64,000 bases of DNA from Marinilabilia sp. (GTDB taxonomy: Bacteria > Bacteroidota > Bacteroidia > Bacteroidales > Marinilabiliaceae): assembly GCF_016278715.1 (NCBI RefSeq), contig NZ_JADQBH010000108.1:6761-70760 (forward strand). Direction: 5' to 3'. A program made the translations under genes and the position numbers. The notes below the pieces were generated by a model. The model had not been told where the DNA came from. It saw only the letters and a program-made list of their open reading frames with translations, and searched no databases. Positions 37,934 to 63,563 of the stretch are shown here, in pieces. Positions within the stretch are counted from its first letter, which is position 1. Each line of letters starts with the position of its first letter.

Positions 37934-37977
37934 AACGGAAGTGTTTTTTATTTGTGCGACCCGGGTGTTTACCCGGC

Positions 37978-40125: not shown

Positions 40126-40175
40126 ATTTATTCTTTTTACAACGCACTAATTAAAAAATATTAATCTCCTGTAAT

Positions 40176-42842: not shown

Positions 42843-42866
42843 GATTCAGTCCCATTTTTTAATAAG

Positions 42867-44495: not shown

Positions 44496-44605
44496 AACAT
44501 TAAACTTTCAAATTAGTTGTTCCAAAAACCAGCAATGTCAGGCTGAAGAAAACCCTCTGCCAAATCAAAAAACATTGCAAAAACAAGTGATATTTCCGAA
44601 AATAA

Positions 44606-44613
44606 CAAAGATA
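44606..44613 (-). promoter_or_regulatory. TAnnTTTG -7 box upstream of the GH35-GH3-GH67-GH43 genes
   Basis: TATCTTTG on the minus strand. Confidence 0.5.
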
Positions 44614-44705
44614 CATTATCATCCGTGGTCAAAGAAGGGAGACTTCTAACATATCTCTTTTCCCGGAAATATCACATGCATTCTACTCTTTGAATCATAG
44701 CCATA

Positions 44706-44864
44706 TTAATGATAAACAAAAGTACTTTCCTCCGACCCCAGGTAAGATGGTTTTAATCCACCGGTATCGATCACTATTTTTTGCAATACCAAGCCGGGAT
44801 CAACCATATAAAACCTGAGCGTATGATTACCGGCCTGTTGAATGGAACTCACTGCCTCTTTCAT
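44706..44864 (-). pseudogene. Relic 3' end of a GH115 alpha-glucuronidase gene (52 codons)
   Basis: Translates MKEAVSSIQQAGNHTLRFYMVDPGLVLQKIVIDTGGLKPSYLGSEESTFVYH*, matching the HTL..MVDPG.VLQKIV.D.GG.K.SYLG..ES terminus of GH115 enzymes; no upstream catalytic domain. Confidence 0.75.
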
Positions 44865-45299
44865 TAGATTGACTTTTAAGAAGTTTATTAAATCAAAGAG
44901 TAATGCTCGTTTTTATTCCTTACTCGTTTTTAGCTAGCATTCTGAAAATCCCAAATGGACATAAAAATCGCGGAACCAGGAAATCACCCCTGACTCTCCA
45001 TGTTTTAACTCCTGTAAATCGAAAAAAACAATCAACTAATCACCATTCATTGGTCATTGGTCAAATCGCACACAATAATTACACGAAGTTAGCGGGATGT
45101 GCAGTTCAGAAGGAGGAAAATTCTATCTTATAGGCGTACTTTTATTAAAAAGAGTAAATTTTTACAAAAAAAATGGTGGAAATTTCTATTCAATACACTT
45201 CTTCAGAAAGCCTTTCAGTTAAATAAATAAAATAAACTCAAGCTATTATTTTATCATGGAGATTTATGAACCCTTCATCTTCAACAAAGAAATTCATAA

Positions 45300-45332
45300 A
45301 AAAGGCCTGCCGAAAAAACTCCGACAGGCCTT
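45300..45332 (-). terminator. Terminator-like hairpin after GH10
   Basis: aaggcctg / caggcctt stem; T tract on the minus strand. Confidence 0.6.
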
Positions 45333-45367
45333 CATTTAAAAAGGAACTAAAGAACCATCAGAAAACT

Positions 45368-47590
45368 TTATTCCTGAAGTTCACCGGTAAAATCCTCACT
45401 CACATCCCTTCCGGCAAGACCATCGGCAAATGTTTTGTAAGCAACCTTGCGCTCGTAGTCAGCATCCCACAAACAGGGGGCATCATCGGGCAACCAATTT
45501 TCATGCTCCGCGGGGGCATCGCTGATTCCCCAAACAGTGATTCCATATTGCTGGGCTACGGGAATAATTTCCCGATATTGATCGGCAATAAACTGGTACA
45601 TCTCGGCCTGTTGCTCAAACTGCTCTGCAGAGGAAGCATCGGTAAGTACCTGAACATCCAGTTCGGAAACCTTAATTAGTTTTCCGGTGGCTGCCAACAG
45701 CTCAAACATTTGGGTGATATTCTCTTTGCTGGTATTGATTGAAACATGCATTTGCGTTCCGATACCATCAACTGTAGCACCCTGACTCTCGATGTATTCC
45801 ACATAGTCTATAAGACCTTCACATTTTGCAATACTACCTTCCAAACCATAATCATTGATGAAAAGAATATCGTCTGGGTTGCCGTACTGACGGGCAAGAT
45901 TGAAAGCAGTAACTGCAAAATCCTGACCCAGATATTTTTGCCAGTAGAACTCATCGCTGGCAGGCTCAGCCACATCTCCATCACGCAGTGTCCCATCATT
46001 GTTCATAGGCTCATTCACCACATCCCAGGCAGTAATGTCATTTTTGTAATGCTCCACCATCTGGGAGATCCAATCTTCCATAGCTGCTCCAATGAGCTGG
46101 GCCTTTTCCTCATCGGTTTTCTCAATGTAAGTAGGTGCTTTGGCTACTTTCAGAGAAGGAGCTCCAGCTGTAGCTTCAGGCGCTTTTCCAAGAACTACAT
46201 TATCAATATGGAATGTAGCCGCTGTGGCACCGAAATCAAAAACAAATTTATTTTTGTCGGCCGTAGAAGGTGTAACAGTGAAATCTACCGGAGTCCAGGA
46301 AGTTCCAACCTGAATTCCTCCATAATAGTCACCACCATAATCGGGGTTTTGTAATTGCACCTGGATTGTGGTAGCAACTGATGATTTAATCATAAAAGAG
46401 ACACTGTAATTGACCCCTTGCTCCAGCGGCTGATCAAATGTATAAACCTGCTGTGCGCTATAAGAATCAGCAGCAGTAGGATTGGTCAGCACCATTGAAT
46501 AACCGGTACCTCCATACCCTTCACCTTCGGCAGAAACTACTCTGGTAGAACTATTTCCCCAACCGTTCCAGGGATCCAATGTTCCACTTTCGAAATCTCC
46601 ATTAGAAATCAAATTTACAACAGTGGGTTCAGCATCGAGGTCTACAACATTCAAAGTATTCACATCGATATAATAAGTAACACCCGGAAGAGCTCCTAAG
46701 TCAAATGACAAAGAAAACCCGGTAGAACCTTCAGCAAACTCACTAATAGTATACTGAACTTGTTGCCAGGCAGAAGTCGTTTCAAAGGCCTCAGTTCCCG
46801 ACCCGGTTCCCATCCAGTCAATCCAGGGATATTCATTAGCAGCACCCGGCATAGAGATACGTCCTTTACCGGGTTGGTCACTCTTGATGAAAAAAGTCAC
46901 CTGATATTCATGCCCTGCAATTACGGGAACCTCAGGACTAACAATCTGCAAGTCCCAGTAATTCGCTGAACTGGAAGAAGCAATCAGTTTCATTGCATCG
47001 GTTCCGGCACCCATTCCTGCACCTCCTTCAACTGTAATACCATCACCCTGGTTATTACGAGCCCAACCGGTAAAACTACCATCTTCCAAACCTGAAACAT
47101 CCAACAGATTGCTACCGGCTGGTTCCGGTATAACTTCAGGAGCAATGAGCCCATTGAGATAACTTGCATCCTGATTCTGATGCCACACAAGAGTATGCCC
47201 AAATACGCTCAGCCCAGCACCTTTTGCCTTTTCCACAAAAGCATCAGCAGTAGTAAAGTCAATAGAGCCATCGCTGTTCACCATGGGGCCGTGTTTCATG
47301 ATATAACCGGCAACCACTTCGTCAAAATTTTGATGAACCACACTATCCACATTGCCTTGCTCCATATAAAGTCCTACACCCACACCCACACCGAGTTTAA
47401 AATCGGTGTAAGTGTTTAGTGCTTCGTAACGGGCTATTTTCTCCTCCATTTTAAGAGGAATTTCGGCTACAGTGATTTCAGAGGAAGGATCTCTCTCTTC
47501 CCACTCCATCATCTGATCGTCACAGGAGGTAGCAAATAGTGCTGCCATTGCCACCACCGGAATTAACATTTTATATTTCATAATTGTCAT
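45368..47590 (-). CDS. GH10 endo-1,4-beta-xylanase lipoprotein with two CBM4-like modules inserted in the catalytic domain
   Basis: Lipobox ATSC; GHTLVWHQ before the insert; WDVVNEP and KVSELDV after it. Confidence 0.92.
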   Translation of the reverse strand: MTIMKYKMLIPVVAMAALFATSCDDQMMEWEERDPSSEITVAEIPLKMEEKIARYEALNTYTDFKLGVGVGVGLYMEQGNVDSVVHQNFDEVVAGYIMKHGPMVNSDGSIDFTTADAFVEKAKGAGLSVFGHTLVWHQNQDASYLNGLIAPEVIPEPAGSNLLDVSGLEDGSFTGWARNNQGDGITVEGGAGMGAGTDAMKLIASSSSANYWDLQIVSPEVPVIAGHEYQVTFFIKSDQPGKGRISMPGAANEYPWIDWMGTGSGTEAFETTSAWQQVQYTISEFAEGSTGFSLSFDLGALPGVTYYIDVNTLNVVDLDAEPTVVNLISNGDFESGTLDPWNGWGNSSTRVVSAEGEGYGGTGYSMVLTNPTAADSYSAQQVYTFDQPLEQGVNYSVSFMIKSSVATTIQVQLQNPDYGGDYYGGIQVGTSWTPVDFTVTPSTADKNKFVFDFGATAATFHIDNVVLGKAPEATAGAPSLKVAKAPTYIEKTDEEKAQLIGAAMEDWISQMVEHYKNDITAWDVVNEPMNNDGTLRDGDVAEPASDEFYWQKYLGQDFAVTAFNLARQYGNPDDILFINDYGLEGSIAKCEGLIDYVEYIESQGATVDGIGTQMHVSINTSKENITQMFELLAATGKLIKVSELDVQVLTDASSAEQFEQQAEMYQFIADQYREIIPVAQQYGITVWGISDAPAEHENWLPDDAPCLWDADYERKVAYKTFADGLAGRDVSEDFTGELQE

Positions 47591-47618
47591 TTCTTAATTT
47601 ATGAGACAAAATACAATA

Positions 47619-49019
47619 CTATTCCACCACTTCTTCAGTCTGCTCTCCACCTTCAGGAAAGTCAGTATAAGTAGGTTGCTCTAAAGAAACCACTCTCCAG
47701 TTGTCCGTAAACACATCAACGGATGTTTCGGAAGAGGGGAATTCTGTTGCGTCGGAATCATTTCCTGTTATGTTGGCAAGTGTAAAATCAGTATTCTCGA
47801 AATAGATTCCAAAGTTCTTGTAACTTGACTCCTCGCGGGCTACCAATACATCTTCGAACGTATAACCCTCTTCTACATCAGAGAATGAATAGAAATCACT
47901 AAAAGGTACAGTAACCGTCACCCAACCATCCGTCTCAAAGGGAACAATTTCTCCATCCACGACCCAGGGCACATAGTTGTATGAGTCGCCACTCCATTCT
48001 CCACCATTAAAACTGTTGTGAAGACAAAGTTTCAGGAATCCGGTTCCGGACCAGGTGCCGGATACATAAACATCAAACTGGAAAGCGACTTCATTCACAG
48101 GCGTTGTCGCAGGAATATAAGAAGTAAGCTGACCTCTCCAGTCATCTACATCGTTACCGGCAGTCCAAACCTCGGTATTGCGACTGCTATTGGTTGGGAA
48201 GGAGGCGATTCTGTCGGGACGATGGGCAACATAAGTGCCCTGAGAAACAGGTCCCATTCCAATCACTTCAGATTCCAGATCCTCGTCGTTAATCATGCTT
48301 CCGTCTTCAGACCAGCTCCAGAATCCCTGCTGACCGTTACCGTCGAAATCCAGAATTACACCTTCTTTAAAGTTAAAATAAGCAGGTGAATATGCTCCAC
48401 CATTTGAGCCTTCAACGAAAAGGGATCCACTTTCAGTAAGTCCATCCGGAACAGTCACTATTACAAACTCCCCTTCCTCATCAGATGTAATTCCCTCGGT
48501 AACTTCCACGTCCCCGGGAAATACTACTTTGCTGATTTCCACAAGGCCGCTACCATAAATAATGATGGACTCGCCTGCCTGAGGCAACGTATGAGAAATG
48601 CTCGAAATAGCAGGAGAAGCAGCTCTGATTTCAAAGTCATAAACATACTCTGTTCCTGTCTTCACAAAGCGAATGGTGTTTCTCACATCATCTTCTGCTT
48701 CAATAGTAGGAGTATCCCCACTCAACTGAATGAGCATATTGTTATCGGTAACATAAACAGGATTGAAATAAGTATCATACCCATTGACATATACCTTCCG
48801 GATTCCGGCAAATCCGGAACCCTCAAGACGCAACACTTGTCCCAGGCGCGCAAAATCAACCTGACGGTCAGGAATATCAGAATCCACATCCTGAAGGTAA
48901 ACTGCCTTAACCGTTATAGGAGTATTATTTGCAGGATCCTCATCATCCTCGCATCCGAAGAAAGCGACGGAAGAGATAAGAAATCCCAGCAATAGCCATA
49001 TATTGATCGTTTTTTTCAT
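47619..49019 (-). CDS. Surface glycan-binding lipoprotein (SGBP) with IPT/TIG-like domains
   Basis: Lipobox FFGC, IPT-like repeats (LEGSGF, IYGSGL), aromatic-rich C-terminal domain; located between susD and GH10. Confidence 0.8.
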   Translation of the reverse strand: MKKTINIWLLLGFLISSVAFFGCEDDEDPANNTPITVKAVYLQDVDSDIPDRQVDFARLGQVLRLEGSGFAGIRKVYVNGYDTYFNPVYVTDNNMLIQLSGDTPTIEAEDDVRNTIRFVKTGTEYVYDFEIRAASPAISSISHTLPQAGESIIIYGSGLVEISKVVFPGDVEVTEGITSDEEGEFVIVTVPDGLTESGSLFVEGSNGGAYSPAYFNFKEGVILDFDGNGQQGFWSWSEDGSMINDEDLESEVIGMGPVSQGTYVAHRPDRIASFPTNSSRNTEVWTAGNDVDDWRGQLTSYIPATTPVNEVAFQFDVYVSGTWSGTGFLKLCLHNSFNGGEWSGDSYNYVPWVVDGEIVPFETDGWVTVTVPFSDFYSFSDVEEGYTFEDVLVAREESSYKNFGIYFENTDFTLANITGNDSDATEFPSSETSVDVFTDNWRVVSLEQPTYTDFPEGGEQTEEVVE

Positions 49020-49168
49020 GTGATTATAATTTATTTGTTATGGTCACATGGAACTTGCATGCAGAATAATCATACATAGATTTTTAATTTCCCTGCCATG
49101 CTCGTTTCATATTCTGTATTATTTAGTTAAGCCCTTCGTTTATTTTAAAATTCAAAGAATCTCAAATT

Positions 49169-50805
49169 TTACCGGAATACATTTATTCTCTCTTCTAAAA
49201 ACTCATAAGTCACAGGATCCTCTCTCAGCAGTGGGTTTTGCACCAGTTCTGACTCAGGATAAGGCAATAACAAATCCTCTGCAGTAGCTGTTGCAACCTG
49301 CTGGGCAGTATTTTCATCGCCTTCAACATAAGTTCCTGTTGCTTCATCATACTCATATTGAACAGCACGGTCCTGAGCGTCATTCACATAATTGAGGACT
49401 TCCTGCTGACGATAGTAAGAACGACGAACCAAGTCGTACCAGTATTGCCCTTCCATAGCCAATTCAATACGACGCTCGTAACGAATGTCTTCATAAGTAA
49501 TTTCTGACTTACTTGGCATGCCTGCACGTTCACGCACCTTATTAAAATATTCCAACGCTGTAGCATCTGTCGTTGATGCATTGTTGCCCAAAATAGCCTC
49601 GGCATATATCAGATAGACTTCAGCCAGCCGCAACATCTTGGTTGTCAAACCAGAGTTCATTCTGGCAACAACACCTTCAGTATCTTTCGCTGAACCAACG
49701 ACACCTTTTTGATATTAGCCCGGTCGGTTTCCTCATAAAGATATCCGCCGGCTGCCTGGTTAATTTCAGGATATTCTGCCCCATAAGTGGCAAATGTAGA
49801 ATGCAAGCGCACAGTTTCTCTGGAATCATATTCTCTGATCATATCCCAGGAAGCGAAAGTATAGTATCCCCATGCTGCATCATCACCTGTTATTTCAGAA
49901 TTCCAGGCAAAGTAAGCTTGTTGTGTATTGGTAATACCGTATTCGGTGGTTCCGCCAACCCATTGCAAAGCGAACAGGGACTCAGCGTCATTATTTCCGT
50001 CAAGAGTAAATAACTCGGCATAACTTTCATTCAATTCCAACCCGCTCTCCACACACACTTTCTCCGCAGCTTTCCTTGCCAGTTCCAGATACTCAGTATC
50101 GCGAATACCCCCATTACGGTCATCCACGTTATGCAATCCTGCATAGGAAAGATATAACCTTGCAAGCATACCATAAGCACTCCATTGATTCAACCGACCG
50201 TTCTGAGTTGCTTCCAAAGGCAAATGCGTAGCCGCAAATTCCAGATCACGGATGGCAAATTCAAAAACATCATTACGCGGGTTGGTCGGAATAATCGGGT
50301 TATTCACTATTGCAGCATTATCGGTGATAATGGGTACATTTCCCCATAATGAAGCAAGATACCAGTATGCAGTACCTCTCATAAACCGGGCTTCAGCAAT
50401 CGCTTCATTCTTGGCTTCTTCAGAAACATTGGTTGCATTGGCCTCAATATTATTAATGGTGTTATTGGCCTGACCAATTACATTATAGAATGATCCCCAG
50501 GCTGAGACCAGAGGGCCGGTAAGAGACGTCTCTGTAAAATTGGTAAATGGATAAACATAATCCGAATAAGGAGCAAAAATATTGTTTGCCCTTCCGTCTC
50601 CGAGTGCATAGTAGAATTTATCGTTAAAATCGAACCACACCTTGCCGTACAATGCGGCAGTGGCTACTCTCAGATCACTCTCACTGGTAAAGAAATTATC
50701 CAGTGTTATGGTATCATTCGATGGAACCTCCAGAAATCCGTCATCGCAAGAGCTGATACCAAGGCCGGCAATAGCCATTATTGTTAATATCTTTTTAATT
50801 TTCAT
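49169..50805 (-). pseudogene. susD: SusD/RagB lipoprotein split by a one-base deletion in an A5 run at 49706-49710
   Basis: ORFs 49657-50805 and 49169-49660; adding one A gives ...ANIKKGVVGSAKDTEGVVARMNSGLTTKMLRLAEVYL..., a continuous 545-aa SusD. May be a sequencing error. Confidence 0.85.
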
Positions 50806-50825
50806 TGTCTTTTACATTTACAGGT

Positions 50826-53800
50826 TTAAAACGAGATATTTACACCGAATGTATAGATTCTGGGTGAAGGATAACGTCCGTTATCTATACCCGTCATCAA
50901 AGCGTCCTGGTTGTACGAACCAACTTCAGGATCATATCCGGAGTACTTTGTAAATGTGTAAGCATTCTTCACTTTGGCATACACCTTTACAACATCAACG
51001 CCAACAGAAGAAATCCAGTCTTTAGGAAGCGTGTAACTCAATGAAACGTCCTGAATTCTAATGAATGAACCATCTTCCACAAAGCGGTCGCTCAACCTGT
51101 TGTTGGCATTGGATGAAGATGCAGCCAGTCGGGGCATCATAGGATCGCCACCGGTAATATGCGTATTGCGAATATCCACCGGACCGTCGGGATCTATTTG
51201 TTCAACCCGGGCATAGTCCAATGCGGAGGTATAAAGGTTGTGATTTTCTCTGGGGTTTTCCAGCCAACGTTTCTGATAATTAATCACGTCATTGCCGTAA
51301 AATCCGTTGAGGAAGATATTCAGATCAAACCCTTTATATGAGAATGTGTTTCCAATACCAAAGGTAAACTTAGGTTCCGGATTTCCGATATAAGTACGGT
51401 CTGATTCGTTAATCACACCGTCCGCGTTAATATCTTTAAAGATGTAATCGCCAATCCAGACACCAGTTTCACTGATTTCTAACCCTTCGGGACGAGCAAC
51501 TTCCTTTATATTCCCGGCATCATCCTTGTAGTAAAAGTCGGTTGCCTCATTGAACCGTCCGATGACCTTATAACCGTAAAACTGACCGATAGGCTGATCC
51601 ACAGCAGTCCGGGTAACAATGGTTGTTTCCGAACCTTCCTGAATGGTTTTATCAATAGTGCTGGTCTCAGTATCCATGCTCAACACTTTACTTCTGTTAA
51701 GTGTAAATACCAGATCTGTTTTCCAGAAGAAATCCCCACGATCCATATTTATTGTTGAAAGGGTTGCTTCAATACCTTTGTTTTCCAAAGAACCAACATT
51801 CATATAAGGAGATGATACAGAACCCTGTCCTTCAACCCCCATATATGCAGGGAGTGGAACATTCAGCAAAAGATCCTGAGTCTCTTTATAATACACATCC
51901 CCAATAAACTGAATCCGGTTATTAAACATATTCAGATCTAAACCTATGTTTGCAGAATAAGTTGTTTCCCATTTCAGATCGGGGTTTGCCATATTCTCAC
52001 TGATAAGGCCTGTTCCAAAAACGGTGGTTACGGGAGAAAGAACATTCGTATAGGCGTAATCAGACCCAACATTTTGGTTACCCACAGCTCCGTATCCCAG
52101 CCTAAGTTTAAGATTATTGATAGAAGAAACCCCGCTCATAAATGATTCATTGGAAACTTTCCATCCAAAAGCAGCAGATGGGAAAAGTCCCCATTTATTG
52201 CCTTCTGCAAATTTGGAAGATCCATCATAACGTAAGGTAGCAGTTAACTGATACTTGTTGTCAAAAGAGTAAAACGCACGCCCGAAATATGATATTATCG
52301 AGTTTCCTCCGGAGCTACTCCCTGCATTAGCAGTGGTTCCGTCTCCCAGATTCAAATCGTGTCCCACATTACTCACAAAACCACTTCGGTATCCCGACAA
52401 ATACTCCCAGTGAGATTTTTGCATTTCATGACCAAGCATCACCTTGACAGAATGCATTTCCGCAAAGGTACGATCGAAGGAAACCAAATTGTTCCAGGAA
52501 TAGAACTTACTGTAGGACTTCGTTCTGGTAGATTCAATTACTTCATTGGTAATAGCTCCAAACGAGTAAGATGGATTGAATTGATATGTATTGGTCATTC
52601 CAAGATCACTTGCGAACTCTGTCTTAAATGTAAGACCGTCCATGAATTTAACCTCTCCAAAAACATTACTGCGGATCCCGGTCTTCTCGTTTTCGTTTTC
52701 CCGGAGCATTGCCATCCCCACGGGGTTGGTTTGAACATACATATCTGTATCGGGACCATCAAATGTACCATCAGCGTTACGCACAGCAACATTAGGAGTT
52801 TGCTTCATGGCAACTTTAATCAGGTTTGCATCCTCTACAGTTACCTGCTGCTCGGAGTTATTAAGTGCAAAGTTCACACCGGCACGAAACCACTCATTCA
52901 CATCAGCATTAAAGTTTCCACGCAAATTATACCTGGTAAATCCGGACCCAATGGCAATACCTTCCTGATCAAGAAAGCCGGCAGCCAATGCATAAGTATT
53001 GTTTTCCCCACCTCCACTTACAGAGAGGTTATGGCTTTGAATACTAGCCTGTGTAAAAAGTTCATCCTGCCAATCAGTTCCTTCTCCCAGCAAATCAGGC
53101 CGTATAAAATAATTATCTCTGGTAACAATACCGGCATCAGCACGATTGTTTTTGTGCATGGCATATTGTTGAAGGTTGAGCAAATCAAGCTTGGTAGCCA
53201 TTTCCTGCACACCATAATAACCGTTGTAGGAAACAAAACTTTTACCTTTTTCACCTTGTTTGGTGTTAATAATGACAACACCATTAGCCGCACGCGATCC
53301 ATAGATGGCTGTTGCTGAGGCATCCTTCAGAATATCCATAGAAACAATGTCATTGGGGTTAATGGATGCCAAAACATTTTCGCTGTTACTTCCGGTAGAA
53401 CCATCAACAATCACACCGTCAATAACAAATATAGGTTCTGTAGATGAGGTCAAAGAACTGATACCCCGAATACGGATGGATGAACCACCACCGGGAGTAC
53501 CTGAATTCTGCATAACCTGTACACCAGCTGCACGACCTTGTAAAACCTGATCAACAGAGGTTGATACGGTTTCCTGGATCGATTCGCTCGAAACAGACAC
53601 GACAGAACCTGTAAGGTCACTTCGTTTCATTTGTCCATAACCAACAACTACAACTTCATCAAGTGCCTGCACATCTTCCTGCATTTGCACATTGATTTCA
53701 GTACGTCCCTCAACCGAAATCACCTGAGATTCAAATCCGATAAAATTGAATCGCAACTGACCGTCGGCAGGAACTTCAACATTGTAATTTCCATCCACAT

Positions 53801-53978
53801 CGGTAATGGTTCCCTGGGAGGTTCCCACAACCATAATATTGACCCCCGGAAGGGGCCCCATATCATCTGTTACGTTTCCTGTCACCATTATATTTTGAGA
53901 CAAGGCAACAAAAGAAACAGATAGCAAGAAGAACATTGCTAAAAATGTCCTTCTTAAAAATAAATCAGTTTTTCTCAT
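50826..53978 (-). CDS. susC: SusC/RagA TonB-dependent transporter of the xylan PUL
   Basis: EVVVVGYG, LKDASATAIYGSRAANGVVII and YPSPRIYTFGVNISF motifs. Confidence 0.96.
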   Translation of the reverse strand: MRKTDLFLRRTFLAMFFLLSVSFVALSQNIMVTGNVTDDMGPLPGVNIMVVGTSQGTITDVDGNYNVEVPADGQLRFNFIGFESQVISVEGRTEINVQMQEDVQALDEVVVVGYGQMKRSDLTGSVVSVSSESIQETVSTSVDQVLQGRAAGVQVMQNSGTPGGGSSIRIRGISSLTSSTEPIFVIDGVIVDGSTGSNSENVLASINPNDIVSMDILKDASATAIYGSRAANGVVIINTKQGEKGKSFVSYNGYYGVQEMATKLDLLNLQQYAMHKNNRADAGIVTRDNYFIRPDLLGEGTDWQDELFTQASIQSHNLSVSGGGENNTYALAAGFLDQEGIAIGSGFTRYNLRGNFNADVNEWFRAGVNFALNNSEQQVTVEDANLIKVAMKQTPNVAVRNADGTFDGPDTDMYVQTNPVGMAMLRENENEKTGIRSNVFGEVKFMDGLTFKTEFASDLGMTNTYQFNPSYSFGAITNEVIESTRTKSYSKFYSWNNLVSFDRTFAEMHSVKVMLGHEMQKSHWEYLSGYRSGFVSNVGHDLNLGDGTTANAGSSSGGNSIISYFGRAFYSFDNKYQLTATLRYDGSSKFAEGNKWGLFPSAAFGWKVSNESFMSGVSSINNLKLRLGYGAVGNQNVGSDYAYTNVLSPVTTVFGTGLISENMANPDLKWETTYSANIGLDLNMFNNRIQFIGDVYYKETQDLLLNVPLPAYMGVEGQGSVSSPYMNVGSLENKGIEATLSTINMDRGDFFWKTDLVFTLNRSKVLSMDTETSTIDKTIQEGSETTIVTRTAVDQPIGQFYGYKVIGRFNEATDFYYKDDAGNIKEVARPEGLEISETGVWIGDYIFKDINADGVINESDRTYIGNPEPKFTFGIGNTFSYKGFDLNIFLNGFYGNDVINYQKRWLENPRENHNLYTSALDYARVEQIDPDGPVDIRNTHITGGDPMMPRLAASSSNANNRLSDRFVEDGSFIRIQDVSLSYTLPKDWISSVGVDVVKVYAKVKNAYTFTKYSGYDPEVGSYNQDALMTGIDNGRYPSPRIYTFGVNISF

Positions 53979-54674: not shown

Positions 54675-57600
54675 TTACATATGATGTTCCTTAATGTACT
54701 GGGTAGGCTTTTTCCCAATCTGTTTAGAGAAACATTTACTGAAGTACTTGGGATCCGAAAAGCCTACCATAAAACTCACCTCAGACACGGAAAGTTTATC
54801 CTGTCGGAATATTTGTGCAGCTCTCTTAATCCTCATTGAGCGAATAAACTCAACCAGAGCAAGACCCGTCATTGACTTCACTTTCTTGAGGATAATTGAA
54901 TGACTCATATGCATATCGTCCACAAGTACTGAAACATCAAAAGAAGGATCGCCCATTTTGCTTTCGGTCACTTCCATTAATCGGGTAAGAAACTTTTCAT
55001 CAGCAGGAGTAATAATTTCTTCAGAAGGTTCCAAAGACAATTTGCCGGCAAATTTTTTCTTAAATGCCATTCTGGAATTCACAAGTGAACTTACCTGAGC
55101 TTTGAGAATGTTGATATTAAAAGGTTTTGTAATGTAGCTGTCGGCTCCGGTTTTCAAGCCCTCAAGCATACTTTCATCGCCTGCTTTGGCAGTAAGCAGG
55201 ATAACAGGAATATGACTGGTTTCAAAACGCTTTTTCAGATTGCCGGTCAGGTCTGTGCCAAGCATTCCGGGAAGCATTACATCACAGATAATAATCTCCG
55301 GCATCCGGGATATGATGCCTGAAAAAGCCTCTTTCCCGTCATGAAAAACAGAAACATTAAACTCCCCCCCAAATACGTTCGCCAACCAATTTGCCAATTC
55401 ATGATCATCCTCCACTATACACATGCCCGGCTTTTCAACTCCTTCTTCATCGGAGTAATACTCTTGATCGGGGAGTTCCTCAGAATTAAATGACTCTCCC
55501 GGCAGTTCAGAAATAAATGCTGAATCATGAACATCGCCTTCAACATTATCTGCCGTTTCGGGCAGCACAATCTCAAAACAACAGCCTCCTCCGGGTTTAT
55601 TATATGCCTTAACCTCACCCTTATTAAGGGCAACAAACTCTTTAACAATAGAAAGCCCGATTCCGGAACCACCCAGATGCGAATGAATTCCCGATTTCAC
55701 CTGATTGAACCGCTCAAAAACACTTTCCAGCTGATGTTCGGGGATTCCTGGCCCGGAATCACATACCCGGATAATTACTCTCCGGCAAACAGAAGAATTG
55801 TTCTCATTTTCATCATATTCCAGTCGAATAAAGACCTTTCCACCAGCCTGAGTAAACTTCATAGCATTGGACAACAAGTTGTATAATGCAGTAGAAATCA
55901 TCTTTTCGTCTGCAGTCAGCCAAATTTCTTTTTCTGTTTCCACCTTGACCTCAATATTCTTTTGACCGGCAAGAGAATCAAAAGCAGCTAAAGTATCGTG
56001 ACACAACTCAACAAGATTGAATCTGGATGGTTTCAGTTCCGAATGCCCGGTATCAATTTTCCTGAACTCAAGAAGTTGATCCACCATATTCAAAAGACGC
56101 TTAACATTCCTGTGCATAATAGAAAGAGTTCCATATACCTCCTTATTGATGTCACTACGGTTTAAAATCTCCTGTAAAGGGGCATAAATCAAGGTAAGAG
56201 GGGTACGAATCTCATGAGAAATATTGGTAAAGAAGCGCATCTTGGCTTCTGTCAGCTCATTATCTTTTTTATGCTGAATACTCTCAATAATGAGGTTGTT
56301 TTTTTGTTTGGCTCCAATAAGGGAGTATTTTCGGAAAGTAAACAATAAAAAAACCAGCAAGGCAAAATAAGCGATATAAGCCCATACCGTTCTCCACAGT
56401 GGAGGGCGGATAGTTACCGGAATTGCGGCAGTTTCAGAAAACCACTCGCCGGAAGTGTCGGTAGCCCTGACTTCGAACAAATAATCCCCTTCATGCAAGT
56501 TGGTATAAGTGGCTCTTCGATTCTCACTATCAGTCTCCTGCCAGGAATCATTAAAACCTTTCAGTCGAAAAGCATACCTGACATTCCCCGGATTTGAAAA
56601 ATGAAGTGCTGAAAACTCAAAGGTCAATTCATTATTACTATGAGACAACATTAAATGGTCAGTATAAGTAACATTCTTCTCCAAAATCTTTTTCCCGTTC
56701 ACTTCTTCATTCGGATATACCGGATTGTTGTGCAAGCGCAAACCAGTAATTTGCACTTTGGGCGGAAAGGGATTGGTTCGCATGCTGTCGGGATGAAAAA
56801 CAGCAACACCGTCCACACCGCCAAAATACATCATCCCGGTTCCGGGGTCTTTATAAGAGGCATTCAAATGAAATTCGCCCGAGGGTAGTCCGTCATTAGC
56901 ACCATAATTGGTAAACGACTCTTTTTCTGCATCAAACTTGGAAATCCCTCTATTGGTTCCCATCCATAAATGCCCACTTTCATCTTCCTCAATAAAAAGC
57001 ACCAATCCTCCGGCCAAACCATCCTTTTCAGAATAGGACCGGAAAGCCAACTCCCCATTTTCAGCTGACTTGACTAGCCCCTTTTCCTGATTGTATAGCA
57101 CTTTGTTTAACCCACTTCCTGTGGCCAGCCAAATATCTCCATCCCGGTCTTCCCAAATATCGTAAACATCATTGTAACTCAGGCTTTCTGTATTGCCACT
57201 AATATTTCGATAAGCTTTGAATTCGCCGGTTCGGGAAACGACTTTATCTTTGTTACAAACATTAATTCCACCTCCTTTTGTGCCTACCCAGAGAAGTCCG
57301 TTGGAATCTTCGAAAATGCACAAAACCTTATCACTACTCAACCCCAACGAATTGGCGGAAGTTCCAAAATAATGTTCTACATTGTCAGTTTCTTTATCAA
57401 TAAATCCCAATCCCCGGCCCCATGTACCAAACCACACACGCTTTCCGACATCCTCGAAAAGAGAAAAAACGAATCCATCAACGGCATAATTTCTAATCTC
57501 CCCAGATTGACTGTAAACACTCACACTATTGCTCGCCGAACCAATCCACAACTCTTCATCACGCCCCACCAAAAGCGCCATAACCTCCTTTGAAAATTGC

Positions 57601-58877
57601 TGATTAGAAACGTACACACGGGGAATATTATTAATTTTGGAAAGTGATTTATTATCATTAGAAAACACATCAATTCCTGCTGCAGCAGTTCCCACCCAAA
57701 TTCGGTTTCCTTTTCCTGTCAAGGCAGTTACCAAATTGTCACTTAAACCTTTGTCGGATGAGTTTCCGGGACGGATAATATGAAAGCATTTGGAATAAAG
57801 GTCGGAATAGGCCAATCCTTTACTCTCCGTTCCTACCCAAAGCACGCCGGTGCGGTCAATCATCAAGGAATTGATAAGGTCGTCCGGAACCGATGTGTTA
57901 TCTTCAAATGAATACAGATAATTTCCAACAATACGGTTATCTTTTATTTTGTAGAGTCCCGCCCCACGGGTTCCGGCCCACAAATTACCTTTATAGTCAA
58001 AGGCAAGATCTTCTACCCAATCCACTTCAAGATTTCTTTCAGGCGATAATGCATTGGAATGAAAATGAACAATTTCATCTGGTTCTTCAAGTTTAGTTGA
58101 AGGAAATATCTTAAATAATCCATCATAAGACGCGGCCCAAACAGAGCCATCGTCATCAAGCACAATAGATGTAAAGACCGTCACTCCCAGCGTTTGAGCC
58201 GAAAGAGAGGTGAATTCATTATCTTCAATATTGTATTTGAACAGTCCTTCTTCCCCTCCAACAACTAAAACCCCTTTCCGGATCTCTTTAATCACAGTAA
58301 TGGAAATATTTTTTTTGTCGGGTTCAAAAATTTTTCCCTCGGCACTATAATACCTGGCTGTTTCAGAAACATTGCGAATCATATTTCGCTCACCTGTTTC
58401 GTCAGCAGAAAAAAGCAAAAGCCCCTCCGAGGTACCTGCCCACAGATTATTCATACTATCGGTTTCCAAATCCTGAACCAGATCATCGTATGTCAGATTA
58501 TTATAACGTGTGATTTCTCCGGTAGCAAAATGTAAACGATTAATTCCTCCGCTTCGGGTCCCTATCCATAAATATTTATCCTGATCGTTTTCGAGACAAA
58601 TAATTTCATTATTGGAGAGTGACTCAGAATCTAGTTGATCGTATTTAAATGTGAGAAATTCATATCCGTCATAACGGTTGAGGCCGTCCTTGGTTCCAAT
58701 CCAGATAAAGCCTTTATTGTCCTGAAGCATACAATAGACCGATGATTGTGACAGCCCCTGGCTAACAGGAATATCGCGAAAATAAAGACCTGAATCCCAA
58801 CCTGACCGGCCACCTGCAACGACAGAAACCAGAAAAAACAAAAACAAAAATTTAAGAAACAACTTTTTACAACTCAT
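54675..58877 (-). CDS. Hybrid two-component system sensor/regulator (beta-propeller, Y_Y_Y, HisKA, HATPase, REC, AraC)
   Basis: WIGT repeats, FFTNISHEIRTPLTL, GSGIGL, CDVMLPGM and VGFSDPKYFSKCF motifs. Confidence 0.96.
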   Translation of the reverse strand: MSCKKLFLKFLFLFFLVSVVAGGRSGWDSGLYFRDIPVSQGLSQSSVYCMLQDNKGFIWIGTKDGLNRYDGYEFLTFKYDQLDSESLSNNEIICLENDQDKYLWIGTRSGGINRLHFATGEITRYNNLTYDDLVQDLETDSMNNLWAGTSEGLLLFSADETGERNMIRNVSETARYYSAEGKIFEPDKKNISITVIKEIRKGVLVVGGEEGLFKYNIEDNEFTSLSAQTLGVTVFTSIVLDDDGSVWAASYDGLFKIFPSTKLEEPDEIVHFHSNALSPERNLEVDWVEDLAFDYKGNLWAGTRGAGLYKIKDNRIVGNYLYSFEDNTSVPDDLINSLMIDRTGVLWVGTESKGLAYSDLYSKCFHIIRPGNSSDKGLSDNLVTALTGKGNRIWVGTAAAGIDVFSNDNKSLSKINNIPRVYVSNQQFSKEVMALLVGRDEELWIGSASNSVSVYSQSGEIRNYAVDGFVFSLFEDVGKRVWFGTWGRGLGFIDKETDNVEHYFGTSANSLGLSSDKVLCIFEDSNGLLWVGTKGGGINVCNKDKVVSRTGEFKAYRNISGNTESLSYNDVYDIWEDRDGDIWLATGSGLNKVLYNQEKGLVKSAENGELAFRSYSEKDGLAGGLVLFIEEDESGHLWMGTNRGISKFDAEKESFTNYGANDGLPSGEFHLNASYKDPGTGMMYFGGVDGVAVFHPDSMRTNPFPPKVQITGLRLHNNPVYPNEEVNGKKILEKNVTYTDHLMLSHSNNELTFEFSALHFSNPGNVRYAFRLKGFNDSWQETDSENRRATYTNLHEGDYLFEVRATDTSGEWFSETAAIPVTIRPPLWRTVWAYIAYFALLVFLLFTFRKYSLIGAKQKNNLIIESIQHKKDNELTEAKMRFFTNISHEIRTPLTLIYAPLQEILNRSDINKEVYGTLSIMHRNVKRLLNMVDQLLEFRKIDTGHSELKPSRFNLVELCHDTLAAFDSLAGQKNIEVKVETEKEIWLTADEKMISTALYNLLSNAMKFTQAGGKVFIRLEYDENENNSSVCRRVIIRVCDSGPGIPEHQLESVFERFNQVKSGIHSHLGGSGIGLSIVKEFVALNKGEVKAYNKPGGGCCFEIVLPETADNVEGDVHDSAFISELPGESFNSEELPDQEYYSDEEGVEKPGMCIVEDDHELANWLANVFGGEFNVSVFHDGKEAFSGIISRMPEIIICDVMLPGMLGTDLTGNLKKRFETSHIPVILLTAKAGDESMLEGLKTGADSYITKPFNINILKAQVSSLVNSRMAFKKKFAGKLSLEPSEEIITPADEKFLTRLMEVTESKMGDPSFDVSVLVDDMHMSHSIILKKVKSMTGLALVEFIRSMRIKRAAQIFRQDKLSVSEVSFMVGFSDPKYFSKCFSKQIGKKPTQYIKEHHM

Positions 58878-58939
58878 CGGTGAATAGTTTTTCAGCAGTG
58901 AACTGATTCTAAGATACTACTCTTTTAACGGATTTTGCA

Positions 58940-59005
58940 CAAAGTTAAAAATTATTTTAATTTACGCAATCGATTGCGTAAGCCGGATGATTATTATTAC
59001 TTTTG
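58940..59005. promoter_or_regulatory. Divergent promoters sharing a perfect 20-bp LacI-type palindrome
   Basis: ttacgcaatcgattgcgtaa at 58962-58981; plus-strand TACTTTTG at 58998; minus-strand TAACTTTG at 58940-58947. Confidence 0.8.
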
Positions 59006-59024
59006 CAATTCAGAGATTTACGAA

Positions 59025-60059
59025 ATGTTAAAAAAGGAAGTAACCATATACGAAATAGCCAAACTACTCAATGTTTCGGCGGCGACTGTCAGCAGGGGTT
59101 TAAAAAATCACCCCTCCATCAGCAAAAAAACCTGTACAAAAATCCAGGAAACAGCAAAAAAATTGGGTTACCAATCCAATGCACTGGCAAGCAGCCTGCG
59201 AACCAGCAAAAGCTATACACTTGGAGTTATAGTCCCCCGGCTCGACAGCAATTTTATGTCGACCGTTTTGGCAGGAATGGAAAAAGCTGCAGTGGAAAAA
59301 GGATACCATCTTATTATAATGCAGTCCTTCGAAACCCAGGAAAAAGAAGAAAAATGTGCGCAATTGCTTTTCAACCACCGGGTTGACGGCATTCTGGTCT
59401 CCACCTCATCAGAATCAGACGGGATGAATCATTTTTCACCATTTGTAAAGAAAAATATTCCGCTTCTGTTCTTCGACAGAGCTCCAAACGGGAAGCATAC
59501 GTTCAGCAGTATAACCATCAACAATCGCAAGGCAGGATACGAACTCACTAAACTTATGATAAAGAATGGTTCCGAAAACATATTACATATTACTGGAAAC
59601 AAAAGACTTTTGGTCTATAAAGAAAGGCTCGATGGTTTCATTCAGGCCTTGAAAGAATTCAACATCCCCTTTTCCCCAAAGATGGTCTGGGAAACAAAGC
59701 TGGGGGTTGAAGATGGAACAAATGCCGCAAAAAAGATCCTGACGATGAAAACTTTACCCGATAGCATTTTTGTAGCGAATGACACCTGTGCGATTGCGAT
59801 AACCAACTATCTGCAAAAAAAAGGAATTAAAATTCCCGGGCAAATTCAGGTTTCAGGATTTAATGATGACCCCTTCGCCTCTCTTTTCACTCCGCAGCTC
59901 ACAACAGTTAGGTATCCCGGAACCGAAATGGGCATAGTTGCAGTTAAGTCTATCATTGACTTAATAAAAACCAAGAACAAATCTCCGGTAAAGGACATTC
60001 TGGATTTTAAACTAATCGTCAGAGAATCTACTGATAAGATTGACACACGACTGCCTTAG
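59025..60059 (+). CDS. LacI-family transcriptional regulator
   Basis: TIYEIAKLLNVSAATVSRGL HTH plus periplasmic-binding-like domain; start taken at ATG 59025. Confidence 0.95.
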   Translation: MLKKEVTIYEIAKLLNVSAATVSRGLKNHPSISKKTCTKIQETAKKLGYQSNALASSLRTSKSYTLGVIVPRLDSNFMSTVLAGMEKAAVEKGYHLIIMQSFETQEKEEKCAQLLFNHRVDGILVSTSSESDGMNHFSPFVKKNIPLLFFDRAPNGKHTFSSITINNRKAGYELTKLMIKNGSENILHITGNKRLLVYKERLDGFIQALKEFNIPFSPKMVWETKLGVEDGTNAAKKILTMKTLPDSIFVANDTCAIAITNYLQKKGIKIPGQIQVSGFNDDPFASLFTPQLTTVRYPGTEMGIVAVKSIIDLIKTKNKSPVKDILDFKLIVRESTDKIDTRLP

Positions 60060-60100: not shown

Positions 60101-60844
60101 ATGATAAAACAGAAAACAGCTATTGTTACCGGCGGGACTACCGGTTTGGGAAAAGCAATTACCAAAACATTTCTAGATGCAGACATTTTCACCATCATCA
60201 TAGACCTGAATAAGGAAAACCTGGATGCAGCCAAAAAAGAATTTGGAGACAAGTGTGCCTATGAACATTTCAACCTGGCAGAACTGGAAAAAATTCCTGC
60301 CCTTGTTGAAACACTTGAAGAGAAGTACGGACAATTGGATATTCTGGTTAACAATGCAGGAATTCATCTGAAGAAATTTGCGCTGGATGTAACCGATGAG
60401 GAGTTCAAAAGAGTCATTGAGATCAATCAAAATGTTGTATTCTCCTTGTCACGCGAGGTTGCCAGGAAAATGATTAAACATGGATCAGGCTCAATCCTCA
60501 ACATCAGTTCCATGGCAGCCATTTATGGAATTCCCCAGGTAATAGCCTATACCGCCGCAAAAACAGCTGTAGAAGGAATGACCCGGGCCATGGCAGTGGA
60601 GTGGTCGCCAAAAGGTGTCCGTGTAAACGCTATTGCCCCGGGGTTTATCTACTCAAAAATGTCGGGTAAAGCACTGGACAGCGACCCCGAGCGCAAACAA
60701 AAAGTATTCTCCCGCACACCGATGGGACGTATGGGAAACCCCGAGGAAGTGGGCTCTGCCGCACTATTTATGGTTTCGGATGCAGCCAGTTATATCACAG
60801 GAGCCATTTTGCCTGTTGATGGCGGTAATTCTATTGGATTTTAA
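60101..60844 (+). CDS. Short-chain dehydrogenase/reductase, probably a hexuronate-pathway oxidoreductase
   Basis: TGGTTGLG, NNAG, YTAAK and VNAIAPG motifs; adjacent to mannonate dehydratase. Confidence 0.85.
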   Translation: MIKQKTAIVTGGTTGLGKAITKTFLDADIFTIIIDLNKENLDAAKKEFGDKCAYEHFNLAELEKIPALVETLEEKYGQLDILVNNAGIHLKKFALDVTDEEFKRVIEINQNVVFSLSREVARKMIKHGSGSILNISSMAAIYGIPQVIAYTAAKTAVEGMTRAMAVEWSPKGVRVNAIAPGFIYSKMSGKALDSDPERKQKVFSRTPMGRMGNPEEVGSAALFMVSDAASYITGAILPVDGGNSIGF

Positions 60845-60890: not shown

Positions 60891-62099
60891 ATGAAGATCA
60901 CCGATGCCAAAGTGATTGTTTGTTCCCCGGCACGGAACTTCGTCACTTTAAAAATATACACCGACCAGGGCGTTTACGGTCTGGGAGACGCAACCCTCAA
61001 TGGCCGGGAACTGGCGGTGGCAACCTACCTCCAGGAATATTGCATTCCTGCCCTGAAAGGCAAAGACCCCAGAAACATTGAAGACATCTGGCACTATTTT
61101 TACCGGGGTGTTTACTGGAAACGTGGAGCCGTAACCATGACAGCCATTTCGGCCATTGATATGGCCCTTTGGGACATCAAGGGAAAAATGCTTAACACCC
61201 CCATTTACAATCTACTGGGAGGCAAAAGCCGCGACCGCGTAATGGTGTATGCTCACGCCAACGGGGTAGATCTGGATCATGCCCTGGAAAGTGTTGCCCA
61301 CGAAATTGATCAGGGTTTTAAAGCCATTCGTGTTCAATCGGGTATTCCCGGATTAGATCACACCTATGGTGTAGCCAAAAAAGGAGAAAAGTATGAGCCG
61401 GCAGGAAAAGGATTGGCCAAGGAGGATTTCTGGGACACCCACAAATACCTGAACTGGGCGCCTAAACTGTTTAGTAAGGTCAGAGAGCATTTTGGAGAAG
61501 ACCCTCTGCTACTGCATGATGTACATCACAGACTCACGCCGATTGAGGCAGGACGTTTGGGAAAAGAGCTGGAGCCCTTTCACCTGTACTGGATGGAAGA
61601 TGCTGTTACCGGAGAACTTCAGGAAGGACTCAAAATTGTTCGCCAACATACCACCACCCCAATAGCCATCGGGGAGGTATTCAATTCGGTTTATGATTAT
61701 ACCTCCCTCATATCTCAGCAGTTAATAGACTTTGTCCGTATGCCCATTGTTCACGGAGGAGGAATTACCCATCTGCAAAAAGTAGCCGCATTTGCAGCTA
61801 TTTATCATGTGCAGACAGGATTTCACGGGGCAACCGACCTCTCACCCATCAATATGGCAGCGGCACTACACTTCGATTTTGCCATCAACAATTTCGGTAT
61901 TCAGGAATATATGCCCCATGAGGAGATTGTCAACCAAGTATTCAAAACCAATTACAAATTTCAGGATGGTTATATGTACATCGACGACACCCCGGGAATA
62001 GGCGTTGACATTGATGAGAAAGCTGCAGAAAAATTTCCATACAGTCCGGCGAGTTTGCCAGTGAACAGGAAAGCCGACGGAACCCTGTTTTATTGGTAA
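60891..62099 (+). CDS. manD: D-mannonate dehydratase, enolase superfamily (ManD/RspA)
   Basis: RNFVTLKI, GDATLNGRELAV, TYGV...YEPA, HDVHHRL, HGATDLSP and GTLFYW motifs; start taken at ATG 60891. Confidence 0.9.
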   Translation: MKITDAKVIVCSPARNFVTLKIYTDQGVYGLGDATLNGRELAVATYLQEYCIPALKGKDPRNIEDIWHYFYRGVYWKRGAVTMTAISAIDMALWDIKGKMLNTPIYNLLGGKSRDRVMVYAHANGVDLDHALESVAHEIDQGFKAIRVQSGIPGLDHTYGVAKKGEKYEPAGKGLAKEDFWDTHKYLNWAPKLFSKVREHFGEDPLLLHDVHHRLTPIEAGRLGKELEPFHLYWMEDAVTGELQEGLKIVRQHTTTPIAIGEVFNSVYDYTSLISQQLIDFVRMPIVHGGGITHLQKVAAFAAIYHVQTGFHGATDLSPINMAAALHFDFAINNFGIQEYMPHEEIVNQVFKTNYKFQDGYMYIDDTPGIGVDIDEKAAEKFPYSPASLPVNRKADGTLFYW

Positions 62100-62150
62100 A
62101 TCATAGTAATGCCAATAAAGCCGATTTCTTTTATTTAAGATGATTGTTCC

Positions 62151-62158
62151 TATATTTG
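62151..62158 (+). promoter_or_regulatory. TAnnTTTG -7 box upstream of the MFS gene
   Basis: TATATTTG 22 nt before the ATG. Confidence 0.5.
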
Positions 62159-62180
62159 TTAGAAACAATCATCTTTTTTT

Positions 62181-63563
62181 ATGACGTGGACCCGCAAACA
62201 ACTCTCCATCCTCTCCATTGTTGCCATCACTTCATTTATGGGGACTTTTCTGATTTCCTCCATCAATATTGCCTTGCCCGCAATAGAAAAGGACTTCAAT
62301 CTGGACGCGGTAACCCTTAGTTGGATTGTCACAGCGTTTCTGTTAACAATGGCCATTTTATTACTGCCTGTAGGCAGATGGGGCGATCTGACCGGCATTC
62401 GGAAGATGTTTAAAGTCGGGGTGGTTTTCTTCACTCTTTCATCAGTTACCTGTGCCTTTGCTCCATCAGGGTTCTGGCTGATAATTTTCAGATTGATCCA
62501 GGGAGCAGGCGCTGCACTCACCAGCACTACAGGGCCTGCCATACTGGTATCTTCATTTCCTCCCAGCCAGAAAGGGCGCGTGCTGGGAATCTCAGTATCA
62601 GCTGTTTACCTGGGTCTTGCTTTCGGACCTTTCTTTGGTGGATTTCTCACCCAGACCTTAGGCTGGCGATCAATTTTTGCTGTTTCAGCCCTTTTGGGAA
62701 CTTTTGTAGTCACGATAACCTGGAAATATCTGGGAAAAGACCAAATATCCAGTGACGAGCCAAAAAAGCGAATCAGTTTAAAAGGAACTGTTTTTTATAT
62801 CATCGGGCTGACCACCATGGTTTACGGGGCATCCATCATCCCCGAAACAAAAGGATGGCTGCTTATTCTTTCCGGGATCATCGCATTAATCCTGTTCTGG
62901 CAAATAGAAAAACGATCTCCTAATCCGGTTATCGACACACATTTATTTACCCGAAACCGGCTTTTTGCATTTTCCAATTTTGCAGCCCTCATCAACTACA
63001 GCGCCACTTTTGCCATTGTATTTCTACTAAGTCTCTACCTTCAAAAAATTCAAAGTCTGAGCCCAAGAGACGCAGGGCTCATATTGGTTGCTCAACCCAT
63101 TATGATGGCGCTATTCTCTCCAATTGCCGGCCGGTTATCAGACCGGATTCAACCCAGATACCTGGCAACACTGGGAATGGCAATGTGTACCTCCGGGCTG
63201 GCTGCATTTGCCTTTCTGAATACAACAACCCCGCTATGGCAGATTGTTTCGCTATTAATCTGGGTAGGACTGGGTTTTGCCTTTTTCTCCAGCCCCAACA
63301 TGAATACCATCATGAGTTCGGTGGACAAAAGCAAGTACGGAATTGCATCTGGTTCGGCAGCTACCATGAGGGTGGTGGGTCAAATAGTCAGCATGACCAT
63401 TGCGACTTTCTTCTTTGCTTTATTCTTTGGGGGTGAACAAATCGAGAAAATTGATTCAGCCATCTTTCTGAAGTCCATGCAATTCGGTTTTATAACCTTT
63501 GCGCTTATTGCAGTCGCGGGTATCTGGTTTTCATTTTACCGTGGATCCATTCAGCGGGAATAG
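62181..63563 (+). CDS. MFS transporter, 14-TM DHA2 (EmrB/QacA-like)
   Basis: GRWGDLTGIRK (motif A), RLIQGAG, GPFFGG and AGRLSDR motifs. Confidence 0.9.
   Translation: MTWTRKQLSILSIVAITSFMGTFLISSINIALPAIEKDFNLDAVTLSWIVTAFLLTMAILLLPVGRWGDLTGIRKMFKVGVVFFTLSSVTCAFAPSGFWLIIFRLIQGAGAALTSTTGPAILVSSFPPSQKGRVLGISVSAVYLGLAFGPFFGGFLTQTLGWRSIFAVSALLGTFVVTITWKYLGKDQISSDEPKKRISLKGTVFYIIGLTTMVYGASIIPETKGWLLILSGIIALILFWQIEKRSPNPVIDTHLFTRNRLFAFSNFAALINYSATFAIVFLLSLYLQKIQSLSPRDAGLILVAQPIMMALFSPIAGRLSDRIQPRYLATLGMAMCTSGLAAFAFLNTTTPLWQIVSLLIWVGLGFAFFSSPNMNTIMSSVDKSKYGIASGSAATMRVVGQIVSMTIATFFFALFFGGEQIEKIDSAIFLKSMQFGFITFALIAVAGIWFSFYRGSIQRE

Follow-up and report, generated by a model that had tools for sequence, protein, structure and literature searches.

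A LacI-family repressor of a Bacteroidales-wide glucuronoxylan type may have been rewired, in one Marinilabiliaceae clade, onto the promoter of an HTCS gene, such that the level of a xylan sensor would be licensed by (methyl)glucuronate or a catabolite of it. Elsewhere in the order, repressors of this group are predicted to gate susC, GH10, and transporter promoters; here, the arrangement would amount to a serial cascade from repressor to HTCS to PUL. Judged as a whole from sequence comparisons, this reading has a little under an even chance of being correct, and its parts, which differ in strength, are assessed separately below. The site on which it is built, the conservation and geometry of that site, and the gene content around it are direct observations. 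The site lies in the 148-bp spacer between the divergent lacI and HTCS genes, within a window of 64 kb (C95:6761-70760), the whole stretch of DNA that was analyzed, from a genome of 326 contigs, 4.95 Mb, and 42% GC that was scanned in its entirety. The site and its core are as follows.

58962-58981, strandless: predicted operator TTACGCAATCGATTGCGTAA, a 20-bp perfect palindrome of the adjacent LacI-family repressor
58966-58977, strandless: operator core GCAATCGATTGC, 12 bp with a central CG, identical in 10 Marinilabiliaceae genomes

Re-reading of the sequence shows a palindrome that is perfect over 10+10 positions and does not extend further (t at 58961, g at 58982); all of the box coordinates given in the initial annotation were likewise matched on both strands. 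The 3′ end of TTACGCAATCGATTGCGTAA is 44 nt from the lacI ATG, and a palindrome with a central CG thereby adjoins a regulator gene. A 20-bp palindrome by itself is not extraordinary genome-wide because 26 perfect palindromes of at least 20 bp are present (~6 are expected from composition), many of them repeat elements or members of repeat families. This abundance, together with ATCGAT being a common restriction-site core, speaks for a chance palindrome, a repeat element, or the site of some other protein, such as a restriction/modification enzyme or another transcription factor, but such an origin is highly improbable. The exact 20-mer is single copy in the genome, the next-best sites have at least four mismatches, and the pattern is of the LacI/CcpA type with a central CG; by our own arithmetic, the chance of one such palindrome within the 148-bp spacer is ~4e-4. 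In addition, an operator-type site is found upstream of every orthologous lacI gene and of many paralogous ones, and it is absent at the HTCS orthologues of three genomes lacking this LacI, as far as their upstream regions were read.

The regulator and the genes that follow it are arranged as listed.

59025-60059, plus strand: LacI/GalR-family repressor, UxuR-like, 344 aa (Pfam LacI HTH and Peripla_BP_1/3)
60101-60844, plus strand: SDR oxidoreductase, probable fructuronate reductase/D-mannonate oxidoreductase (UxuB role; Pfam adh_short, function from context)
60891-62099, plus strand: D-mannonate dehydratase ManD, enolase superfamily (NCBIfam NF043051 equivalog, 690 bits versus a cut-off of 550)
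62138-62180, plus strand: hairpin and T-run, likely terminator of lacI-SDR-manD (AAGATGATTGTT ... AACAATCATCTT, then TTTTTTT)

The LacI protein comprises an HTH (PF00356, residues 7-52) and an effector domain (PF00532/PF13377) and aligns over its full length to the CcpA and PurR structures, with the HTH and hinge intact. In the structures of PurR, LacI, and CcpA, a leucine of the hinge helix inserts at the central CpG of the operator. This leucine is held in the hinge of the window protein, NALASSL, which aligns to NAVARGL of CcpA. Five further LacI paralogues (32-38% identity) are encoded in the same genome. The early assignment of the palindrome as a LacI-family operator is borne out by the retention of the core upstream of all orthologous lacI genes, and the palindrome is very likely the operator of the adjacent UxuR-like repressor.

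As had been supposed, lacI, SDR, and manD form one operon-like unit: the lacI-SDR and SDR-manD gaps are 41 and 46 nt, respectively, neither contains a -7 box, and a hairpin terminator follows manD. The loop in the terminator region (62138-62181) carries a consensus -7 box (TATATTTG) directly upstream of a DHA2-type MFS gene, and a terminator and a promoter may overlap there. The SDR matches NCBIfam models, including those for D-mannonate oxidoreductase and KduD, at scores under the equivalog cut-offs. UxuA (PF03786) was not found in the genome and ManD is the only mannonate dehydratase; therefore, the window operon is predicted to supply the fructuronate-to-mannonate-to-KDG steps. UxaC is encoded on another contig, where it adjoins a paralogous LacI gene. 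Autoregulation of lacI-SDR-manD by LacI can be predicted with good confidence.

On the other side of the spacer, the divergent gene is, as first annotated, an HTCS that heads a xylan PUL.

54675-58877, minus strand: HTCS, 1400 aa, heading the xylan PUL (Pfam Reg_prop, Y_Y_Y, HisKA, HATPase_c, Response_reg, HTH_18/AraC)
36230-53978, minus strand: structural genes of the xylan PUL downstream of HTCS (SusC, split SusD, SGBP, GH10+CBM4_9, GH35/DUF5597, GH3, GH67 alpha-glucuronidase, GH43, all by Pfam)

The Pfam content, with susC/D, SGBP, GH10, GH3, GH67, and GH43, identifies the locus behind the HTCS as a glucuronoxylan PUL. Its SusD is found in two overlapping ORFs, 49657-50805 and 49169-49660 (window positions 49169-50805), as the result of either a frameshift or a sequencing error; with SusD split in this MAG, the PUL may therefore not be fully functional. 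The HTCS orthologue of a second genome (G022) is likewise broken into two.

HTCS genes of B. thetaiotaomicron typically show low, constitutive expression (PMC6874557), in agreement with the initial annotation, which had described HTCS genes as usually lacking a local repressor. Raised HTCS dosage gives 2-3-fold higher PUL output in the same organism (PMC6874557). No described case of a LacI, or other cytoplasmic, repressor controlling an HTCS gene was found in the literature searched.

The two divergent promoters are predicted from the following elements.

58940-58947, minus strand: predicted -7 box TAACTTTG of the HTCS promoter, with a predicted TSS at ~58934-58936 and the operator at about -26 to -45
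58998-59005, plus strand: predicted -7 box TACTTTTG of the lacI-SDR-manD promoter, with a predicted TSS at ~59009-59011 and the operator at about -28 to -47
58967-58976, both strands: two TTG triplets, possible -33 elements that are operator half-sites, with spacers of 19 and 21 nt

On the plus strand, TTG at 58974-58976 is followed by a 21-nt spacer, TACTTTTG at 58998-59005, and the lacI ATG at 59025. On the minus strand, TTG at 58969-58967 is followed by a 19-nt spacer, TAACTTTG at 58947-58940, and the HTCS ATG at 58877. The order across the spacer is the HTCS -7 box, 18 nt, the 12-bp core, 20 nt, and the lacI -7 box. The Bacteroides -7 box spans about -11 to -4. In the genome as a whole, sense-strand TAnnTTTG located 20-60 nt ahead of long ORFs exceeds background ~4-5-fold (two 20-nt bins with 152 and 114 hits; background, ~30 per bin), and therefore the Bacteroidetes -7 box is applicable here. 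TACTTTTG begins 27 nt from the lacI start codon, within the bin of highest enrichment. For TAACTTTG, the distance from its start to the HTCS ATG is 70 nt, which corresponds to a 2-fold-enriched bin, below that of the lacI box; it is the sole consensus -7 box in the interval from the operator to the HTCS ATG. Upstream TTG triplets are enriched 2-3-fold genome-wide at spacers of 18-22 nt, which makes the -33 a weak element in this genome. The promoter grammar proposed in the initial annotation thus stands with respect to TAnnTTTG; the "-33 boxes" read ATTG and not TTTG. Because these tetrads are identical to the operator half-sites, they are not demonstrable as independent promoter elements, and, with a weak -33 element that reads ATTG on each strand, occlusion of it may therefore repress only partially.

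As calculated from the predicted TSSs, the operator is centered at about -35.5 with respect to HTCS and at about -37.5 with respect to lacI, a near-symmetric geometry that is conserved. A center at ~-36 overlaps the polymerase contact region of both promoters, and a role for LacI as an activator was rejected on this ground. The same geometry bears on the simplest alternative, namely that the operator serves lacI-SDR-manD and a distant aldo-keto reductase (AKR) gene, described below, with the HTCS gene merely sharing the spacer and its promoter unaffected or nearly so. This could come about if the weak -33 were dispensable, if the true HTCS TSS were elsewhere, or if RNA polymerase outcompeted the repressor on the HTCS side. 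Control of lacI by its own product would fully account for conservation of the operator, the weakness of the -33 element fits such a scheme, and regulon tables for B. thetaiotaomicron give no regulator for HTCS genes. With the two centers nearly symmetric, however, repression at lacI should act similarly on the HTCS side.

Conservation of the locus was followed by searching the LacI protein in relatives, the family (133 genomes), and the order (401 genomes). Full-length orthologues of 60-74% identity are present in nine family genomes, this one included, which represent 3 of 25 genera, and a tenth, in G002, is cut by a contig end. A search for related loci among genome contigs returned one true relative, Marinilabilia sp. 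UBA5340 (G005). The core GCAATCGATTGC is upstream of lacI in all 10 orthologous loci, across the three genera, in flanks that diverge. Constraint across these loci is limited to ~14-16 bp (TTACGCAATCGATTGCG), and the perfection over 20 bp is specific to the genome analyzed here; the outer right-hand bases of the palindrome vary among orthologous loci (GTAA, GCAA, ACAA, GTTC, GCTA). On the lacI side, the -7 box is 20 nt from the core in every case, as established by alignment for seven loci and by reading for G002, G422, and G491. On the HTCS side, all five full-length loci of the genus have CAAAGTTA at a distance of 18 nt, and CAAATTTA occupies the same position in G021. The divergent-side spacing is 18 nt in G491 (imperfect box), 19 nt in G022 (imperfect box) and G422, and 15 nt in G002. 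In the other genera, the spacers have diverged outside the core and boxes.

An HTCS orthologue (61-77% identity) is the divergent neighbor of lacI in 9 of the 10 genomes. In G022 (L006/L032) and G422 (L074), an inserted repeat or MITE-like element separates the HTCS gene from the promoter, and in G491 (L075) an IS transposase takes the place of the HTCS neighbor; the lacI-HTCS linkage is therefore not under absolute constraint. The operator is kept in all three genomes despite displacement of the HTCS neighbor, as would be expected if it served lacI and AKR only. Against this stands G021, in which the exact 18-nt spacing on the HTCS side is kept despite diverged surroundings. On the weight of this evidence and of the comparisons across families given below, an operator without effect on the HTCS gene seems unlikely, though it is the most serious competitor, and LacI probably co-represses the HTCS promoter.

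G011, G012, and G015 lack this LacI, and no operator precedes their HTCS orthologues (51-53% identity) over the upstream stretch that was read; the G012 orthologue is preceded by a clear -7 box. The conserved lacI/HTCS spacer is an insertion hotspot, as seen in G022, G422, G491, and also G005 (L004), where an insertion of ~110 bp separates the lacI promoter from its ATG.

Scanning of the whole genome for the site, a check proposed with the initial annotation, yielded one other perfect core, upstream of the AKR gene. This second GCAATCGATTGC core is on contig C196, 14 nt downstream of a TAATTTTG -7 box and ahead of the gene itself (C196:928-1965, locus L038). G005, G006, and G008 retain the AKR operator and G003 has a degenerate form of it; neither G022 nor the LacI-less G001 has the site. 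Within the genus, the AKR proteins share 86-94% identity, far above the 68-74% of the regulator. A conserved second operator at this gene indicates that LacI has a regulon beyond its own operon. In G001 (L076), a different quasi-palindrome centered on AATT, TGCAAACAATTGATTGCA, is found ahead of the AKR orthologue; it may represent an operator in decay or belong to another regulator.

No further site with up to two mismatches to the 12-bp core was found in the 64-kb window, the susC and enzyme promoters included, and the window likewise has no auxiliary operator for DNA looping. The repressor thus has no direct target among the PUL structural promoters and could influence the PUL only via HTCS. 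Several near-matches elsewhere were set aside. Contig C13 has three cores with one mismatch, of which one is within a spacer between convergent genes, one precedes an unannotated gene by 205 nt, and one is internal to a FemAB-like ORF; they were attributed to chance or to other regulators. Near-match sites on C233 and C267 adjoin paralogous LacI genes and are presumably the operators of those genes. Two perfect palindromes of 40-44 bp, at C216:14386-14429 and C233:31868-31907, consist of tandem LacI-like boxes of the GCAAACGTTTGC type; the one on C233 is a few hundred base pairs upstream of a paralogous LacI gene (C233:30583-31515).

Beyond the family, LacI homologues of 43-50% identity are found in 14 of the 401 Bacteroidales genomes, distributed over many families, and in ten of these distant homologues tGCAAyCGrTTGCa is present upstream of lacI. 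The genes divergent from the distant lacI genes are as follows.

G031: CE15-MFS_2-GH10-GH115
G293: MFS_2 transporter
G206 and G069: SASA/GH2N esterases
G199 and G231: susC
G148: GH10
G150: GFO/IDH oxidoreductase
G230: HTCS

Four of these genomes, G199, G231, G148, and G031, have a -7-type box for the divergent gene at 18-20 nt from the core. Placement of the operator across the upstream portion of the promoter of a divergent xylan gene is thus a recurrent design of the clade, and no other indirect evidence argues as strongly for the divergent gene being a real target. Its recurrence with susC or GH10 on the divergent side in other families also speaks against control of lacI and AKR alone. The LacI-HTCS pair of G230 was not counted as support, as its HTCS is only 37% identical and lacks a clean -7 box at 18-20 nt. 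URO-D-like genes (PF01208, methyltransferase-type) are directly beside lacI in G293 (L043), G206 (L047), and G069 (L048).

The same neighborhoods raise the question of which compound the repressor senses. The description "hexuronate-sensing" is a guess from gene context, and control could be bidirectional as proposed with a xylan oligosaccharide (aldouronate or xylobiose) or xylose as the effector, in which case the regulator would be XylR-like and not UxuR-like. The 43-50% homologues do adjoin xyloside-type MFS_2 transporters, GH10, GH115, CE15, and susC rather than uronate enzymes, and the window operon is without a hexuronate transporter, the MFS gene downstream of manD being of the DHA2/EmrB type. 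The regulator's own operon, on the other hand, carries the fructuronate-to-KDG steps (SDR and ManD), an SDR gene also follows lacI in G148 and G230, and the gene order parallels uxuR-uxuB-uxuA of B. thetaiotaomicron. We regard a xylan-derived effector as rather improbable, slightly more so than an operator confined to lacI and AKR; a glucuronate-pathway compound, favored by analogy with the Bacteroides operon, is a reasonably likely effector.

With a glucuronate-pathway effector, the predicted arrangement would operate as follows. The apo-repressor dimer, once bound to the operator, would occupy about -26 to -47 in both promoters and obstruct RNA polymerase on either side, such that, without effector, the repressor's own operon and the HTCS gene of the xylan PUL would be held down together. 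The effector, probably glucuronate or a catabolite, would arise after GH67 of the PUL frees (methyl)glucuronate. Its build-up in the cytoplasm would cause the repressor to leave the DNA, and both the uronate enzymes and HTCS would rise; more HTCS would in turn give a stronger PUL response to xylo-oligosaccharides. The result would be a loop of positive feedback, or licensing, that acts in series with the sensing step of HTCS.

The usual picture of PUL control is a single tier in which a constitutive HTCS, SusR, or anti-sigma sensor detects an oligosaccharide and switches the locus on. If the proposed cascade is correct, sensor abundance would itself be set by a cytoplasmic metabolite repressor, a second tier with feedback or priming logic; a side-chain sugar acid of glucuronoxylan would be tied to expression of the whole xylan system, and HTCS genes would not in every case be constitutive and free of regulation. 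The spacer could also serve Bacteroidota engineering as a compact promoter that is bidirectional and metabolite-gated; no synthetic lacO placed in Bacteroides promoters was found in the literature searched. If autoregulation alone applies, the site is an ordinary LacI operator.

The closest known counterpart is UxuR (BT1434) of B. thetaiotaomicron, a predicted LacI-family regulator of the uxuR-uxuB-uxuA glucuronate operon (Ravcheev et al. 2013, PMC3878776). Similar to UxuR, the window LacI is encoded at the head of an operon in which a mannonate oxidoreductase-type SDR and a mannonate dehydratase follow, and it has a palindromic operator and predicted autoregulation; by operon position and gene order, it can be likened to Bacteroides UxuR as a functional counterpart. 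The main differences are that the dehydratase is the enolase-superfamily ManD in place of UxuA, the spacer is shared with HTCS, and the regulon includes AKR.

A LacI-type repressor of the xylan/xylose system, XylR, which responds to xylose, is also known from Xanthomonas campestris and Caulobacter. Similar to the window LacI, XylR recognizes a CG-centered palindromic box; its targets are TonB-dependent transporter, xylanase, and glucuronidase genes for xylan use. XylR differs in belonging to another phylum, in the sequence of its box, in its xylose effector, and in acting directly on structural genes without an HTCS intermediary. The XylR regulator is mentioned in PMC12125979.

Cytoplasmic control of PULs has precedent within Bacteroides, where the monosaccharide repressors AraR (BT0354) and ManR co-control PUL operons with HTCSs (PMC4666351, PMC3878776). 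The two-tier control put forward in the initial annotation is to that extent already known; what is unusual is an HTCS gene as the target. As with AraR and ManR, a cytoplasmic sugar-sensing repressor would tie catabolism of a released sugar to expression of polysaccharide utilization genes. AraR is a member of the NrtR family, whereas the window regulator is of the LacI family. For AraR and ManR, the sites are found at the structural susC and enzyme operons of the PUL, so that dual control is parallel, whereas here the only predicted PUL target is HTCS and control would be serial. LacI operators at divergent promoters and metabolite repressors coupled to PULs are both well known, and the novelty of the present system is the HTCS gene as the repressor target.
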